Below are positions 39,528-44,123 of a stretch of DNA of 64,000 bases, one piece after another. The stretch is from Escherichia phage vB_Eco_slurp01. The notes under the pieces were generated by a model. That model saw nothing but the letters and a program-made list of their open reading frames with translations, had not been told where the DNA came from and ran no database searches. Numbering within the stretch: the first letter of the stretch is position 1; each line of letters opens with the position of its first letter. The stretch is taken from the sequence record LT603033; one strand, given 5' to 3'. The position numbers and the translations under genes were made by a program.

Positions 39528-39755
39528 ATGACAAATACTCTTAAGTACTACCTCAATACTCTAAATGAACTAGAGTACGGGGAATTTCTCGCGGATAGTT
39601 CGTGGCTAATTGAGCTAAAAAATTATAATAGTCCAGGATGCACCCTTATGATGAACAATGCAATTGATACCCTCATTGTGAGTATTTTACACAGCAACAT
39701 CTGCGGGGATAGCAATAAACAATTATCAAAAATCTTAGTACTGCTATCTATATGA
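39528..39755 (+). CDS. small protein, first gene of small-paralog array
   Basis: RBS AAGGAGAA; 75 aa; Y-rich N-terminus, hydrophobic C-terminus. Confidence 0.6.
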   Translation: MTNTLKYYLNTLNELEYGEFLADSSWLIELKNYNSPGCTLMMNNAIDTLIVSILHSNICGDSNKQLSKILVLLSI

Positions 39756-39955
39756 ATATCGAACAGTACTACATCGATGCACTACCAACAAAAGGTCTAC
39801 GTGAAAGCCTACTGCATACACAAACTAATTTCAAACACCTCAAACGTAGCCCTAAACTCCTGAACTCGTACAGGAATAATAACATAAGAAATGCTTTACA
39901 AGGGGTAGAATGTATGCAATACTATTACATCCTTACCCTATTAATCGAGTACTAA
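39752..39955 (+). CDS. small paralog family protein
   Basis: ATGA overlap; MNIEQYYIDALP...LTLLIEY. Confidence 0.6.
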   Translation: MNIEQYYIDALPTKGLRESLLHTQTNFKHLKRSPKLLNSYRNNNIRNALQGVECMQYYYILTLLIEY

Positions 39956-39956
39956 T

Positions 39957-40166
39957 ATGAATACTGAACATAAAGAATTCTACACCAAATACCTTAGCAA
40001 CGAAGAACAATTGTTTCTAAGGAGTGTATCACCTGTAAGTACCAATACTCAATTCGGTAGAGATTGCTTTAATAATTGTATACGTAGTACTCTAGAAGCA
40101 ATCGAATGCAATAACAAAAATATTATGTACTCAGGTTTAATAGGACTAATATATTTCTATGAATAA
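39957..40166 (+). CDS. small paralog family protein
   Basis: MNTEHKEFY...; near-paralog of 43333..43542. Confidence 0.65.
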   Translation: MNTEHKEFYTKYLSNEEQLFLRSVSPVSTNTQFGRDCFNNCIRSTLEAIECNNKNIMYSGLIGLIYFYE

Positions 40167-40353
40167 TCATAAAGATTTCTATTGTAGTAAACTACCCAAA
40201 CAAGAACAGCTATCATTCTCTTTAGCACCACCTATGAGAAAGGATAATCTGTATTATAATTACGATTTCAGGATAGAGACACGTGATGCAATAGAACATA
40301 CGTTCCCTGCAACTAAGTACCGCTCTATCCTGAACCTCATCTTTAAGTTCTAA
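40159..40353 (+). CDS. small paralog family protein
   Basis: MNNHKDFY...; overlapping start. Confidence 0.6.
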   Translation: MNNHKDFYCSKLPKQEQLSFSLAPPMRKDNLYYNYDFRIETRDAIEHTFPATKYRSILNLIFKF

Positions 40354-40363
40354 AAGGTGCTAT

Positions 40364-40573
40364 ATGAAAACTACAAACATTCATCAGTACTACATAGATA
40401 TTCTCCCTAAAGATGTACAGTTCATACTTAAACAAGAATTCAGTACTTTAAAAAAACTAAAAAGAACCGCACCTTCAGCAATCATCCAGCACCAAAAAAA
40501 TGTCGTGCGTAATATACTACAAGGTACACCAGGGACCGAGTACTTTAATATAGTAAGGCTAATTACATTATAA
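40364..40573 (+). CDS. small paralog family protein
   Basis: ...QYYIDILP...; paralog of 39752..39955. Confidence 0.6.
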   Translation: MKTTNIHQYYIDILPKDVQFILKQEFSTLKKLKRTAPSAIIQHQKNVVRNILQGTPGTEYFNIVRLITL

Positions 40574-40758
40574 TGAATCATATAAGCTACTACTACCAAC
40601 AACTATCCGACAGAGACAAGTACAGTCACAACTCTCATGTGTGGTACTACAAACGCGGCAGTATAAGAGACAAACAACATTACTTCTGTGTTTCTATTAA
40701 AGAAGCACTTACAACTAAGTACACGTACCGAGCAGTACTTAAACTTATTGAAATGTAA
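40573..40758 (+). CDS. small paralog family protein
   Basis: TAATG coupling; ...KYTYRAVLKLIEM. Confidence 0.6.
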   Translation: MNHISYYYQQLSDRDKYSHNSHVWYYKRGSIRDKQHYFCVSIKEALTTKYTYRAVLKLIEM

Positions 40759-40765
40759 GGAAGAC

Positions 40766-40954
40766 ATGAACACTTTTGAGTACTACTTCAATAAACTAAG
40801 CTCCATAGAACAACAGATGCATAACTCATATATTAAGCACTATCAATCATCTGTACCTGAAATTAAAAACATATCGATTGAGGTTATCACTGACAGGGTA
40901 CTGTCATCGGAACGTTATATGTATATTGATGTACTGAAACTAATCTCTATATAA
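40766..40954 (+). CDS. small paralog family protein
   Basis: MNTFEYYFNKL...VLKLISI. Confidence 0.6.
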   Translation: MNTFEYYFNKLSSIEQQMHNSYIKHYQSSVPEIKNISIEVITDRVLSSERYMYIDVLKLISI

Positions 40955-40962
40955 GGAATAAA

Positions 40963-41145
40963 ATGAACATAGAATTCTATTTAACTAAACTACAACACGC
41001 CGAAAGATTCAACTTCAATAAGTTCAATATTTTCTACAATTGCGGGAACAAAAAAGATAAACACACCTTCCTATATGTCGTCACAAGAGATGCACAAAAC
41101 GAAAAGTACACATACAGAGAAGTAATGAAACTAATCTCTATATAA
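40963..41145 (+). CDS. small paralog family protein
   Basis: ...KYTYREVMKLISI; paralog of 40573..40758. Confidence 0.6.
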   Translation: MNIEFYLTKLQHAERFNFNKFNIFYNCGNKKDKHTFLYVVTRDAQNEKYTYREVMKLISI

Positions 41146-41153
41146 GGAATACT

Positions 41154-41333
41154 ATGCAACAATTCTATATAGAACGTATAACCATAAAAGACCGTTTCAT
41201 GTACGACACATTCGTTGATTACTACAAACTAGGAACAAAAAGTACTAAAAATATTAATCTCAATAGCTGCATTTATGCTGTACTAACACAAGATAATCCC
41301 TACAGGGAAATCCTCGCCCTGGCATCTATATAA
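41154..41333 (+). CDS. small paralog family protein (59 aa)
   Basis: MQQFYIER...ILALASI; below track cutoff; fills gap. Confidence 0.5.
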   Translation: MQQFYIERITIKDRFMYDTFVDYYKLGTKSTKNINLNSCIYAVLTQDNPYREILALASI

Positions 41334-41343
41334 AGGAAACCAA

Positions 41344-42571: not shown

Positions 42572-42572
42572 T

Positions 42573-42755
42573 ATGCACAAAGAATACTACACACAATTTC
42601 TCCCCAGCATTTTTGAACACTACGCCAGATACAAAGTCCCTATGGATAACGATTTGGCAGTACTGGGATTCAATAACTGCATAGAACGAAGTATAGAAAA
42701 TAGTAGTAGTTATGACCAGCTATATAACACTATCCTACTTATATTCAGGTACTAA
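42573..42755 (+). CDS. small paralog family protein
   Basis: MHKEYYTQF...ILLIFRY. Confidence 0.6.
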   Translation: MHKEYYTQFLPSIFEHYARYKVPMDNDLAVLGFNNCIERSIENSSSYDQLYNTILLIFRY

Positions 42756-42756
42756 C

Positions 42757-42945
42757 ATGCATAAAGAATACTACACAAAATATTTCCCAATGTACCTCAG
42801 AACTAATCTATTAGATAAACCTCGCGGTATCAATGCACAAAATGATAAAGTGTACTTTACTATGTGCACTAAAGCATGTATACTAGATTTTGACAGCTAT
42901 CATCGAGTACTGTATCATACCCTGTACCTAGCTTTCGTATTCTAA
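42757..42945 (+). CDS. small paralog family protein
   Basis: MHKEYYTKYFPMYL... Confidence 0.6.
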   Translation: MHKEYYTKYFPMYLRTNLLDKPRGINAQNDKVYFTMCTKACILDFDSYHRVLYHTLYLAFVF

Positions 42946-42954
42946 GAGAACAAT

Positions 42955-43140
42955 ATGCATAAAGAATTCTACTTAAGCCATCTCGATCTAAACTCCCAAA
43001 TGCTTATACCACTAATCCCAATAGATATCAAGGATAAGAAAAATACCGAACAATTCATTTACCATACACAGTGTGCGATCACCCCAAATTACATTCCATA
43101 TGAATTGTACTACATTATCGCCCTAATATATAGGTACTAA
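42955..43140 (+). CDS. small paralog family protein
   Basis: MHKEFYLSHL...IALIYRY. Confidence 0.6.
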   Translation: MHKEFYLSHLDLNSQMLIPLIPIDIKDKKNTEQFIYHTQCAITPNYIPYELYYIIALIYRY

Positions 43141-43141
43141 T

Positions 43142-43327
43142 ATGCATAGAGAATACTACACACAATTTGTTAAAGGGAACTACAAACATGCCGTACCCAG
43201 AACCCCTTTAAATTCTCATGACCCAAGTACTATATTCTTGTTCCATGACGCAATACGTACAGTACTCAATACTAAAGATGAAGATGTGCAGTACGTATTC
43301 TTACTATTACTTATATACAGACACTAA
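43142..43327 (+). CDS. small paralog family protein
   Basis: MHREYYTQF...LLLIYRH. Confidence 0.6.
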   Translation: MHREYYTQFVKGNYKHAVPRTPLNSHDPSTIFLFHDAIRTVLNTKDEDVQYVFLLLLIYRH

Positions 43328-43332
43328 CTAAT

Positions 43333-43542
43333 ATGAATAAAGAACATAAAGAATTCTACTCCAAATACATAAGCCCCTCAGAACAAATGTTTCTAAGGAC
43401 TACTCCACCTTTAAGTACTAATACATTTTTCGGCAGAGTATGCTACAATAATTGTATTCAAATGACTTTAAACGCAAACGAAGATGGTAACAGTACTAAC
43501 CTGTACTCAGGTATCATAGGTATACTATTCCTGTATGAATAA
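43333..43542 (+). CDS. small paralog family protein
   Basis: MNKEHKEFYSKY...; near-paralog of 39957..40166. Confidence 0.65.
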   Translation: MNKEHKEFYSKYISPSEQMFLRTTPPLSTNTFFGRVCYNNCIQMTLNANEDGNSTNLYSGIIGILFLYE

Positions 43543-43723
43543 TTACAAAGACTTCTATTTGAATACACTACCTACTGTACTTTCTCTAAGTGCTCAATGT
43601 AAAATCCCCCTGGATAATGCTTACGCCAGATATAGCTATTCCATAACTGTTAATCGATGTATAGAGAATCATTGCAGTACTAACCAGTACTATAACATAA
43701 TCCTACTTATATTCAGGTACTAA
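43535..43723 (+). CDS. small paralog family protein
   Basis: MNNYKDFY...ILLIFRY. Confidence 0.6.
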   Translation: MNNYKDFYLNTLPTVLSLSAQCKIPLDNAYARYSYSITVNRCIENHCSTNQYYNIILLIFRY

Positions 43724-43724
43724 T

Positions 43725-43907
43725 ATGAATAAAGAACATAAAGAATTCTATATACGAAAACTAACATTCGTCCCCGTAAGAATATATAAAGAATGCGACC
43801 CAAGATTATACCTATGGCACTTCAATGAGTGCATAAAAGATTCTATATACCCTAAGAACTATAAAGAACAATTGTGCTCAGTACTAACACTAGTACTATC
43901 ATATTAA
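43725..43907 (+). CDS. small paralog family protein
   Basis: MNKEHKEFYIRKL... Confidence 0.6.
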   Translation: MNKEHKEFYIRKLTFVPVRIYKECDPRLYLWHFNECIKDSIYPKNYKEQLCSVLTLVLSY

Positions 43908-43922
43908 TTAATAGAGAATACT

Positions 43923-44123
43923 ATGTATAAAAACTTCTATATAAGTAAACTAAAAGAAAATGAACAAGTATGGATTAGATCTATAATTCCACTGGCATTT
44001 AATAGATATGCATTTAACAGATGTACCGAGATTGCTATAGACCCTTATAATATTAAAGAGAATGTACAGTATAATCAGTATAATCAGTACTACTATATCT
44101 TAATGATTATATATAGGAAGTAA
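43923..44123 (+). CDS. small paralog family protein (last of array)
   Basis: MYKNFYISKL...LMIIYRK. Confidence 0.6.
   Translation: MYKNFYISKLKENEQVWIRSIIPLAFNRYAFNRCTEIAIDPYNIKENVQYNQYNQYYYILMIIYRK

Follow-up and report, generated by a model that had tools for sequence, protein, structure and literature searches.

A tandem array of small, diverged paralogous genes near the terminal repeat of an Asteriusvirus jumbo coliphage

The 64,000-nucleotide stretch of Escherichia phage vB_Eco_slurp01 DNA analyzed here (sequence record LT603033; referred to below as the window) carries on its + strand, at positions 39528-44123, a run of 21 back-to-back open reading frames (ORFs), which are numbered m01 to m21 in order. 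After correction of their starts, 20 of them encode 59-75 amino acids and one encodes 223 amino acids. On the evidence of profile comparisons, 19 of the 21 belong to a single superfamily of small proteins, and the genes that encode them are under purifying but relaxed selection. The explanation that best accounts for the array as a whole, namely that it is an operon of diverged paralogs that is expressed early in infection and encodes effectors, is one to which we give about an even chance of being correct.

The array and its protein family

The ORFs cover 98.2% of the + strand between these positions. Coverage in 500 dinucleotide-preserving shuffles of the same region averaged 2.9% and did not exceed 17.9%, with at most four ORFs of at least 55 amino acids. 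The ORFs are regularly spaced, with approximately 190 bp per unit, and their junction sequences recur. Three starts were moved to the methionine that aligns across the family (m07 = 40766, m11 = 42008 and m15 = 42757). Thus, the tandem run of about 21 consecutive small + strand ORFs with one 223-residue member that an earlier note on this DNA had described is confirmed. Matches to the array region were obtained in 35 phage records, all of which are Asteriusvirus-type jumbo phages of E. coli or Salmonella, including 121Q, PBECO4, G17, phAPEC6 and JP4, with 88-97% identity over most of the query. The source of the window is an Asteriusvirus jumbo coliphage of the 121Q/G17/PBECO4 group. No tRNA genes were found in the window.

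All-against-all phmmer comparison of the ORFs revealed a connected core of 13 (group A: m03, m04 and m11-m21), a group of four (group B: m06-m09) and a pair (group C: m02 and m05), and left m01 and m10 unlinked to any other ORF. For all five of the core-A members that were tested, the match to PHROG 11711 extends end to end (E 1e-25 to 2e-6), and no match to this PHROG was obtained from the tested members of group B (m06 and m08) or group C (m05). When profiles were built from the window sequences alone, the similarity between groups was weak but end to end (E=2.8e-4 for A and B, and E=5.8e-4 for A and C). When the profiles were enlarged with orthologs from nine other genomes, hhalign gave a probability of 95.5% (E=1.5e-8) for A and B, and 93.5% (E=2.3e-7) for A and C. 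These comparisons establish one superfamily, the HKEYY small proteins, with PHROG 11711 as its core and 19 of the 21 ORFs as its members. The PHROG and the array family consist of the same genes; however, the PHROG covers the core only, and groups B and C join it only by profile-profile comparison. The PHROG 11711 genes have been deposited as hypothetical proteins (121Q_250-265, G17_00054-00068 and phAPEC6 gp540c-547c), and orthologous arrays are annotated in GenBank. A description of the family, of the operon or of a hypervariable island was found in no sequence record nor in the Asteriusvirus and jumbo-phage literature searched.

Two ORFs stand apart. The first, m01 (39528-39755, 75 amino acids), is a leader ORF with orthologs in 8 of 10 genomes. 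It resembles the family at the motif level only (LKYYLNTL..., ...ILVLLSI), and its best match to the family profiles, against group C, is not significant (E=3.8e-3). Its membership is unproven, and we retain it as a possible, very divergent member. The 223-residue ORF, m10 (41344-42015), is found mid-array in every genome. Its C-terminal 60 or so residues look motif-like by eye, but hhalign returned E=0.13 and the relationship was rejected; profile comparison excludes m10 from the family both as a whole protein and as its C-terminal 60 residues. It matches PHROG 29152, a function-unknown group, has no Pfam match and no PDB sequence match, and has homologs only in Asteriusvirus-type contigs. 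Its AlphaFold2 model is unusable, with a predicted local distance difference test score (pLDDT) of 45.9. The proposal that the array consists of about 21 paralogs therefore holds for 19 ORFs, and fails for m10, which is unrelated, and for m01, which is not demonstrably related.

Upstream of m10, the first family members are m02 (39752-39955, 67 amino acids, group C) and the core-A genes m03 (39957-40166, 69 amino acids; PHROG 11711 E=1.7e-12) and m04 (40159-40353, 64 amino acids), which overlap by 8 nucleotides. These are followed by m05 (40364-40573, 69 amino acids), the second group C member, which is linked to m02 by phmmer (E=2.4e-10) and is present in only 4 of 10 genomes. The group B genes, which are linked to one another with E values of 1e-10 to 4e-5, are m06 (40573-40758, 61 amino acids), m07 (40766-40954, 62 amino acids; its start was moved from a GTG-extended ORF at 40688, and it is present in 3 of 10 genomes), m08 (40963-41145, 60 amino acids) and m09 (41154-41333, 59 amino acids). 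Downstream of m10, all of the genes belong to core A. They are m11 (42008-42190, 60 amino acids), which with its corrected start overlaps m10 by 8 nucleotides; m12 (42192-42371, 59 amino acids), present in 3 of 10 genomes; m13 (42380-42571, 63 amino acids; PHROG 11711 E=1.3e-25), the representative chosen for modelling; m14 (42573-42755, 60 amino acids); m15 (42757-42945, 62 amino acids, start corrected); m16 (42955-43140, 61 amino acids); m17 (43142-43327, 61 amino acids); m18 (43333-43542, 69 amino acids), a paralog of m03 (phmmer E=9e-29); m19 (43535-43723, 62 amino acids), a paralog of m04 (phmmer E=1.6e-10) and of m14 that overlaps m18 by 8 nucleotides; m20 (43725-43907, 60 amino acids); and the last cistron, m21 (43923-44123, 66 amino acids).

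According to column statistics for 87 unique core sequences, the conserved columns are H4, K5 (in 72 of 87 sequences), E6, [YF]7, Y8, which is invariant, L12, P24, F36, C39, [TI]40, [IL]44, [YL]53, Y54, L57, L59, I60, [FY]61, [RK]62 and [YF]63. Most of the remaining columns have an entropy of approximately 3 bits or more, and insertions and deletions are confined to two loops. The N-terminal motif that had been proposed is upheld in the form HKE[YF]Y, as is the hydrophobic C-terminus, which is a helix with the pattern L-x-L-I-[YF]-[RK]-[YF]. The proposed central cysteine is present but only partly conserved (54 of 87 sequences). The stand-alone form of about 60 amino acids with an N-terminal [HY]-K-E-[YF]-Y and this C-terminal pattern was found. 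An AlphaFold2 model of m13, built from a 58-sequence alignment, has a pLDDT of 90.3 and a predicted template modelling score of 0.75, with helices predicted at residues 3-10, 14-17, 30-45 and 49-62, and a loop at residues 18-29. Within the predicted helices, hydrophobic conserved columns are spaced 3-4 residues apart, with the polar N-terminal motif besides, and the conserved hydrophobic positions fit core packing of the helices in the model. The predicted family fold is a small, soluble, tyrosine-rich helical bundle; tyrosine makes up 10.4% of residues and glycine makes up 1.8%.

Searches for relatives outside of the array gave a consistent picture. A Pfam scan of nine array ORFs, m10 included, returned no match, and PHROGs returned function-unknown groups only. 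Foldseek comparison of the m13 model with the PDB gave no fold match, PDB sequence and profile searches for the family gave no match, and a fold search of BFVD returned family members only. With tblastn, the family was found only in 35 Asteriusvirus records, which are of E. coli or Salmonella phages. A word-indexed search of 5.8 billion proteins gave 57 matches of 41-90 amino acids, and an exhaustive hidden Markov model (HMM) search of 1.84 billion representatives gave 35 matches, all of them stand-alone, single-domain proteins of 41-69 amino acids. Twenty-six of the HMM matches were new, and 21 of these are at least 60% identical to members in ten sampled genomes. Of the five divergent matches, two were traced to loci of unchanged architecture, one of them on a metagenome contig: an RCC1 array, the small-ORF array with a gene of about 222 amino acids mid-way, a gap, and small genes. 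By these searches, the family is restricted to the genus Asteriusvirus. The HMM search and structure prediction that the earlier note had recommended thus recovered the family and a confidently predicted fold, and yielded no outside homolog or PDB match. We also noticed that P0016, P0084, P0085 and P0092, which are family members and m10 homologs, are deposited as 'Escherichia coli' on contigs of 354-359 kb, indicating that whole Asteriusvirus genomes are present in bacterial assemblies. This reflects either a carrier state or contamination.

Selection on the ORFs was assessed using Nei-Gojobori estimates of the ratio of nonsynonymous to synonymous substitution (omega) between window members and their best reciprocal orthologs in JP4, BF17, 121Q and phAPEC6. 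The pooled in-frame omega values are 0.57, 0.40, 0.34 and 0.44, respectively (Fisher p = 2e-2, 1e-11, 3e-6 and 9e-4). The identical alignments read in the +1 and +2 frames gave values of 0.74-1.7, none of which is significant. Substitutions peak at third codon positions, and the ORFs are still open in JNE01, for which synonymous divergence (dS) is near 1. Equal divergence of synonymous and nonsynonymous positions had been named as an observation that would count against coding; the divergence is unequal, and only in the annotated frame. Some single members reach an omega of 1 or more, on few substitutions. For identical genome pairs, neighbouring genes in the terminal repeat have omega values of 0.16-0.31, so the array values are approximately twice as high, that is, the array is under about half of the constraint. 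An RCC1 baseline was dropped because the best matches are not orthologs and dS is saturated. We conclude that the array genes are under purifying but relaxed selection.

Putative promoter, cistron junctions and turnover

A single putative sigma70-type promoter lies upstream of the array at 39474-39502 on the + strand. It consists of a -35 hexamer TTGACA (39474-39479), a 17-nucleotide spacer that contains the palindrome CAGTACTG, and a -10 hexamer TACTAT (39497-39502), and scores 10 of 12 in a consensus scan. It is followed by the Shine-Dalgarno site of the first cistron, AAGGAG (39514-39519, + strand), for which the calculated anti-Shine-Dalgarno duplex energy is -9.3 kcal/mol, and by the ATG at 39528. 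Among nine phages, the -35 hexamer is invariant and the -10 hexamer is TAnnAT-like, even in the JNE01/Turkey5 lineage, in which the array itself is barely alignable. The Shine-Dalgarno context of the first cistron, TAAGGAGAA, is likewise invariant in 9 phages. Consensus matching revealed no + strand terminator-like site inside the array, and the largest internal gap is 15 nucleotides. Because there is neither an internal terminator-like site nor a longer spacer, a single polycistronic transcript is the simplest reading, and we infer that the array is a 4.6-kb, 21-cistron operon. Host RNA polymerase would read the whole array early in infection from the promoter at 39474-39502, and transcription would head toward the neighbouring terminal repeat, where perfect sigma70 promoters are numerous among the small genes.

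The junctions between cistrons are tight, but not in the manner that had been claimed for them. Most had been described as stop-start overlaps; however, only 5 of the 20 window junctions overlap (by 8 nucleotides three times, by 4 and by 1), and in the example that had been cited, GGTACTAATATG, the TAA and ATG are 1 nucleotide apart. Seven junctions have a gap of +1, so that 12 of the 20 have a gap of +1 or less, and the remaining eight have gaps of 5-15 nucleotides, each of which carries an AAGGA-type Shine-Dalgarno site. Of the 172 junctions in ten genomes, overlaps account for 34 and gaps of 0 or +1 for 42. The mean anti-Shine-Dalgarno duplex energy is -3.5 kcal/mol at starts, compared with -0.8 kcal/mol in the background.

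The codon that encodes the conserved C-terminal arginine is informative in this regard. In the window it is AGG in 6 of 7 cases, compared with 7 of 47 internal arginine codons of the array (15%; Fisher p = 4e-4), and AGG accounts for 10 of 213 arginine codons elsewhere in the window (5%). Among the ten genomes, the penultimate arginine codon is AGG in 30 of 30 cases in which the next start lies within 1 nucleotide, and otherwise is AGA in 12 cases and AGG in 5. This difference supports a double use of AGG, and makes plausible the suggestion that the C-terminal Arg-Tyr codons serve as the ribosome-binding context of the next gene. The C-terminal AGG would thereby plausibly act as a ribosome-binding site, and ribosomes would pass from cistron to cistron over the overlaps and 1-nucleotide gaps, aided by the Shine-Dalgarno-like AGG in the upstream gene.

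The palindrome in the promoter spacer is itself unusual. There are 63 copies of CAGTACTG in the whole window, compared with 0.89 expected; examples are at 14733, 39486, 44320-44507, 44898, 45049-45082, 46061-46174, 47728, 55275 and 62897, and seventeen copies are clustered in the non-coding stretch 44124-46257. A subset lies in the spacers of sigma70-like promoters of the form TTGACA-N8/9-CAGTACTG-N0-3-TATAAT, the array promoter included. The array promoters of JNE01 and Turkey5 have not retained the palindrome. A full-text literature search for it returned primer sequences only. Its possible roles include that of an operator and that of a site of modification or nicking.

Comparison of ten genomes revealed a common gene order, m01 - C - A - A - (C) - B x2-6 - m10 - A x8-12; the number of genes per array ranges from 15 to 23. 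At a threshold of at least 70% identity, the genes of the ten genomes fall into 51 orthogroups. Each paralog of the window forms a separate orthogroup, no within-genome pair exceeds 70% identity, and the paralogous copies are highly diverged (20-50% identity). The orthogroups of m05, m07, m08, m12 and m19 are patchily distributed. The pairs m03-m04 and m18-m19 represent an old duplicated two-gene unit, both copies of which retain the 8-nucleotide overlap. One family protein, P0008, is a chimera of m13 and m15 joined in a shared RVLYH stretch, which provides direct evidence of unequal crossover. Thus, the repertoire turns over by gene gain, gene loss and unequal crossover. When the window is compared with JNE01, the terminal repeat is 91% identical, whereas the array aligns in three short patches of 71-75% identity; conservation resumes at 44461. 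The array is therefore a hypervariable island that is far more divergent between lineages than the adjoining DNA, and together with the RCC1 array it constitutes the two most variable regions that we found between otherwise approximately 90% identical genomes.

The terminal repeat and the RCC1 array

Self-comparison of the G17 record reveals an exact direct terminal repeat of 20,668 bp, consistent with reports of a terminal redundancy of approximately 20 kb (PMC6563267) and of a 20,668-bp repeat (PMC11895373) in this phage. The inner boundary of the G17 repeat maps to approximately position 44509 of the window, and the last gene of the array ends approximately 390 bp before it. The spacer between them (44124-44509) ends in a perfect tandem repeat of a 60-bp unit in 3.3 copies (44314-44509, detected by Tandem Repeats Finder), the distal edge of which coincides with the mapped boundary. 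Altogether, the array is followed by 2.1 kb of non-coding, repeat-rich sequence and then by many small + strand genes. The region from 44.5 to 64 kb, the equivalent of the G17 terminal repeat, contains ten perfect (12 of 12) sigma70 promoters on the + strand, and approximately 15 further matches of 11 of 12 lie within 44500-64000, almost all of them on the + strand. Promoter-bearing intergenic units are repeated, and there is one promoter per gene or two. In this respect 44500-64000 looks like a classical early region, and the array is the first unique-region cluster beside this promoter-dense repeat, transcribed in the common direction.

Several other features of the repeat and its junctions deserve mention. 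The 2.1-kb non-coding stretch at 44124-46257 contains a 53-bp repeat in 2.6 copies (46061-46200) and 16/24-bp repeats (45334-45433), and it includes both the mapped terminal-repeat boundary and the minimum of the cumulative GC skew; it is a candidate region for packaging, for the terminus or for the origin of replication. The 60-bp repeat also accounts for a listed 71-residue ORF (44304-44519), which is an artefact. A second tandem array, outside of the window (L015:1-6200, equivalent to G17 344000-350200), is situated just inside the other junction of the terminal repeat; it comprises at least 27 overlapping small ORFs (52-90 amino acids, motif LGTNYQE-YV) that form 366 significant phmmer pairs. 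This second array is unrelated to the first, and its comparison with the HKEYY profiles gave no match. A composite element, AAAGG(G)TTGACTTCGGTCAGCC(C)TTT followed by a T-run and TATAAT, recurs at 5860-5883, 9287-9308, 10904-10927, 19666-19693, 53592-53619, 57200-57227 and 62736-62763; it is a terminator-like hairpin whose stem holds the -35 hexamer of the next promoter. Finally, among the small terminal-repeat genes of relatives, a 79-residue DUF7249 (PF23907) protein occurs in two copies (L012:12645-12884 and 14686-14925; L013:11703-11942 and 13300-13539).

On the other side of the array, the minus strand carries approximately 13 RCC1-like beta-propeller genes (24916-39443). The two arrays had been described as diverging from a shared intergenic region of roughly 100 bp, and this arrangement is real. 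The listed ORFs lie 84 bp apart, a distance that grows to 102 bp if translation of the RCC1 gene begins, like that of its paralogs, at the MLPF methionine (39425). The region upstream of this last RCC1 gene (39426-39473, minus strand) reads TAAATAtgaTATAAT, then AAGGAGG, and then the MLPF start at 39425; it lies back to back with the small-ORF promoter and is conserved in 9 phages. Comparison of 13 upstream regions shows that each RCC1 gene is preceded by a repeated cassette of approximately 70 bp, which consists of a terminator-like hairpin, GCCAGTAC-n4-TACTGGC with a T-run, then TAAATAtagTATAAT, then AAAGGAGG and the MLPF start. Several of the listed RCC1 starts (MNKEG..., LIKYS..., MPVLD...) read through the cassette, and the true RCC1 start is probably the conserved MLPF methionine.

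The earlier note also raised the possibility that the two arrays are co-regulated. Their promoters differ in type, and their codon usage differs as well: the index NNC/(NNC+NNT) is 0.51 for the small-ORF array, 0.47 for m10, 0.43 for terminal-repeat genes, 0.30 for genes on the left-hand side of the window and 0.21 for RCC1 genes. In addition, mass spectrometry of phAPEC6 virions listed two RCC1 proteins and none of gp540c-548c (PMC7247149). Given these differences in promoter type, codon usage and presence in the virion, co-regulation of the small-ORF and RCC1 arrays is not supported. Separately, we observed a negative GC skew on the coding strand of the small-ORF array (-0.14 to -0.23, and -0.37 at third codon positions), opposite to that of the other + strand genes. 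This skew reflects a composition rich in Tyr, Asn, His and Ile and poor in Gly, Ala and Val, together with a preference for C-ending codons.

Possible functions and comparison with known systems

The reading that we prefer is that the array encodes a battery of early intracellular effectors, each of which would bind a different host or competitor protein for instance in host takeover or anti-defence. We hold it tentatively, at somewhat less than an even chance. The conserved N- and C-terminal motif would give the proteins a common scaffold or docking site, with specificity coming from the variable surface. The arsenal of host-factor inhibitors or anti-defence proteins envisaged in the earlier note fits the evolutionary pattern. 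Early timing is suggested by codon usage, which is close to that of the terminal-repeat genes and unlike that of the RCC1 genes, and by analogy with T5 and SPO1. Several points weigh against these proposals. Early timing draws on codon usage and that analogy only, and the searchable literature yielded no Asteriusvirus transcriptome. Promoter matches of 10 of 12 show no enrichment in the array region (22 observed, compared with 33.9 expected), the AGG counts are not independent because orthologs and paralogs share ancestry, and the terminal-repeat boundary is transferred from G17 rather than taken from the window's own phage. The omega values of 0.34-0.57 would also suit weakly constrained, dispensable genes, and absence from the phAPEC6 virion proteome is weak evidence since 7-kDa proteins are easily missed.

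A bolder form of the effector proposal is that the array is a combinatorial anti-host library, in which a patch formed by the conserved H-K-E-[YF]-Y and [RK]-[YF] residues would dock a common partner and the hypervariable surface of each paralog would neutralize a different host defence or host factor. Together with the second small-paralog array and the hypervariable RCC1 virion proteins, such a library would set host range. We regard this extended version as unlikely.

Improbable, in our estimation, is the possibility that the small proteins are instead partners of the RCC1 virion proteins, acting as folding or assembly chaperones or as adaptors, such that the two arrays form one host-range module. 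The arrays are adjacent in every genome examined, the metagenome contig included, their expansion is confined to Asteriusvirus, and each is a hot spot of divergence (PMC13070987). RCC1 proteins are found in the virion (PMC7247149), and the window contains 13 core-A genes and approximately 13 RCC1 genes. Such a partnership is difficult to reconcile with the opposite strands, the different promoter architectures and the different codon usage of the two arrays. The counts do not agree in other phages either: 121Q has 13 RCC1 genes (PMC5259590) compared with 11 core-A and 15 superfamily genes, and phAPEC6 has 11 RCC1 genes (PMC7247149) compared with 12 core-A genes. A one-to-one pairing of copy numbers was rejected on these counts. 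Moreover, GAP32 has an RCC1-like virion protein, yet the family was not found outside of Asteriusvirus.

A similarly slim chance attaches to the idea that the array is a weakly selected gene nursery, whose ORFs are translated but individually dispensable and are kept by duplication and loss without having specific targets. The fairly high omega values, including those of the single members noted above, the patchy presence of genes across genomes, and the lack of any homolog or function found elsewhere would all be expected of such a nursery. Nevertheless, omega is significantly below 1 in every comparison, each paralog is a distinct orthogroup across most genomes with no close pair within a genome, and the ORFs are intact at a dS near 1. 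Strict conservation of the promoter and Shine-Dalgarno site, and conservation of the polar N-terminal residues, likewise argue against it.

We consider it quite improbable that the proteins are small regulators that bind nucleic acid or the transcription apparatus, comparable to the zinc-ribbons of Bacillus phage G or to small phage proteins that inhibit RNA polymerase. In size and helical character they do resemble small RNA-polymerase-binding phage proteins. Lineage-specific expansions of putative transcription factors have been described in jumbo phages (PMC7824862). The members, however, have isoelectric points ranging from 4.7 to 10, with no uniform basic character; they have no helix-turn-helix or zinc motif, one partly conserved cysteine only, and no Pfam or PDB match; and nineteen diverged copies are hard to square with a single conserved target. 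Still less probable are small membrane proteins, involved in superinfection exclusion or holin-like, that are anchored by the hydrophobic C-terminal segment (LLLIYRY, LKLISI). No transmembrane segment was found in the members: their maximum 19-residue Kyte-Doolittle hydropathy is 1.18, and their longest run lacking D, E, K, R, H, N and Q is 13 residues or fewer. The segment is also the C-terminal helix of a confidently modelled bundle, where its conserved hydrophobic positions fit core packing. The notion that the ORFs owe their periodicity to a tandem DNA repeat without coding function, as their regular spacing and recurring junction sequences might suggest, can effectively be dismissed on account of the frame-specific omega, the ORFs that stay open at high dS and the lack of any unit-length repeat detected within 39528-44123 by Tandem Repeats Finder, and it also runs counter to the third-position substitution peak, the ORF coverage relative to shuffles and the confident fold predicted from the family alignment.

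The locus is of interest for several reasons. Jumbo phages of the 121Q/PBECO4 group are being characterized as therapy candidates, and most of their genes, 83% in the case of phAPEC6, are without known function (PMC7247149). A single scaffold diversified 19 times is a pattern that usually marks a host interface. Should the proteins turn out to inhibit host defences or host factors, the array would constitute a compact, naturally diversified library of 7-kDa binders and a host-range marker; if instead it is dispensable, it would be a record of small-gene birth and loss in phage genomes. The AGG in the last arginine codon would offer a clean, testable case of codon choice that benefits the following gene.

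Among known systems, a lineage-specific jumbo-phage expansion has been reported in Bacillus phage G, which has a zinc-ribbon family of approximately 35 copies (PMC7824862). As in that family, the array consists of many copies of one very small domain of unknown function in a single jumbo-phage lineage. Unlike the zinc-ribbons, to which they are unrelated, the array proteins are predicted to be all-helical and lack a metal-binding motif, and their genes are old copies (20-50% identity) in what appears to be one uninterrupted, single-promoter operon that abuts a terminal repeat. The MGF100, MGF110, MGF360 and MGF505 families of African swine fever virus and the 'genomic accordions' of poxviruses are terminal multigene families with an established role in host range or immune evasion. 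Like them, the array is a set of tandem paralogs near a terminus, of varying copy number (15-23), forming a hot spot flanked by conserved DNA; in contrast to them, it has a prokaryotic operon organization, shares no homology with them, and a role of this sort is conjecture for it. Dense clusters of very small genes with host-type promoters in or near long direct terminal repeats are also found in the SPO1 host-takeover module and among the T5 pre-early genes. The array shares this density, its place at a long terminal repeat and a putative host-type promoter, but its genes are paralogous whereas those of SPO1 and T5 are mostly unrelated, and it lies just outside of the repeat and has one promoter.

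Anti-CRISPR and other anti-defence operons, and the immunity arrays of polymorphic toxins, likewise consist of small proteins encoded in tandem that turn over rapidly and present variable surfaces on a small, conserved scaffold, although the array differs from them in that its family members are all homologs of each other. In nine annotated records, whose neighbouring genes were not systematically scanned, no Aca-type repressor, helix-turn-helix or toxin gene is annotated in or beside the array. We found no sequence or fold similarity to solved anti-defence or immunity proteins, and an analogous function remains compatible with this result. The tandem expansion of a small phage protein within one lineage is a phenomenon of a known kind; what is new is the scaffold, the scale of the expansion within one inferred operon, its location at the junction with the terminal repeat, and the plausible double use of AGG.

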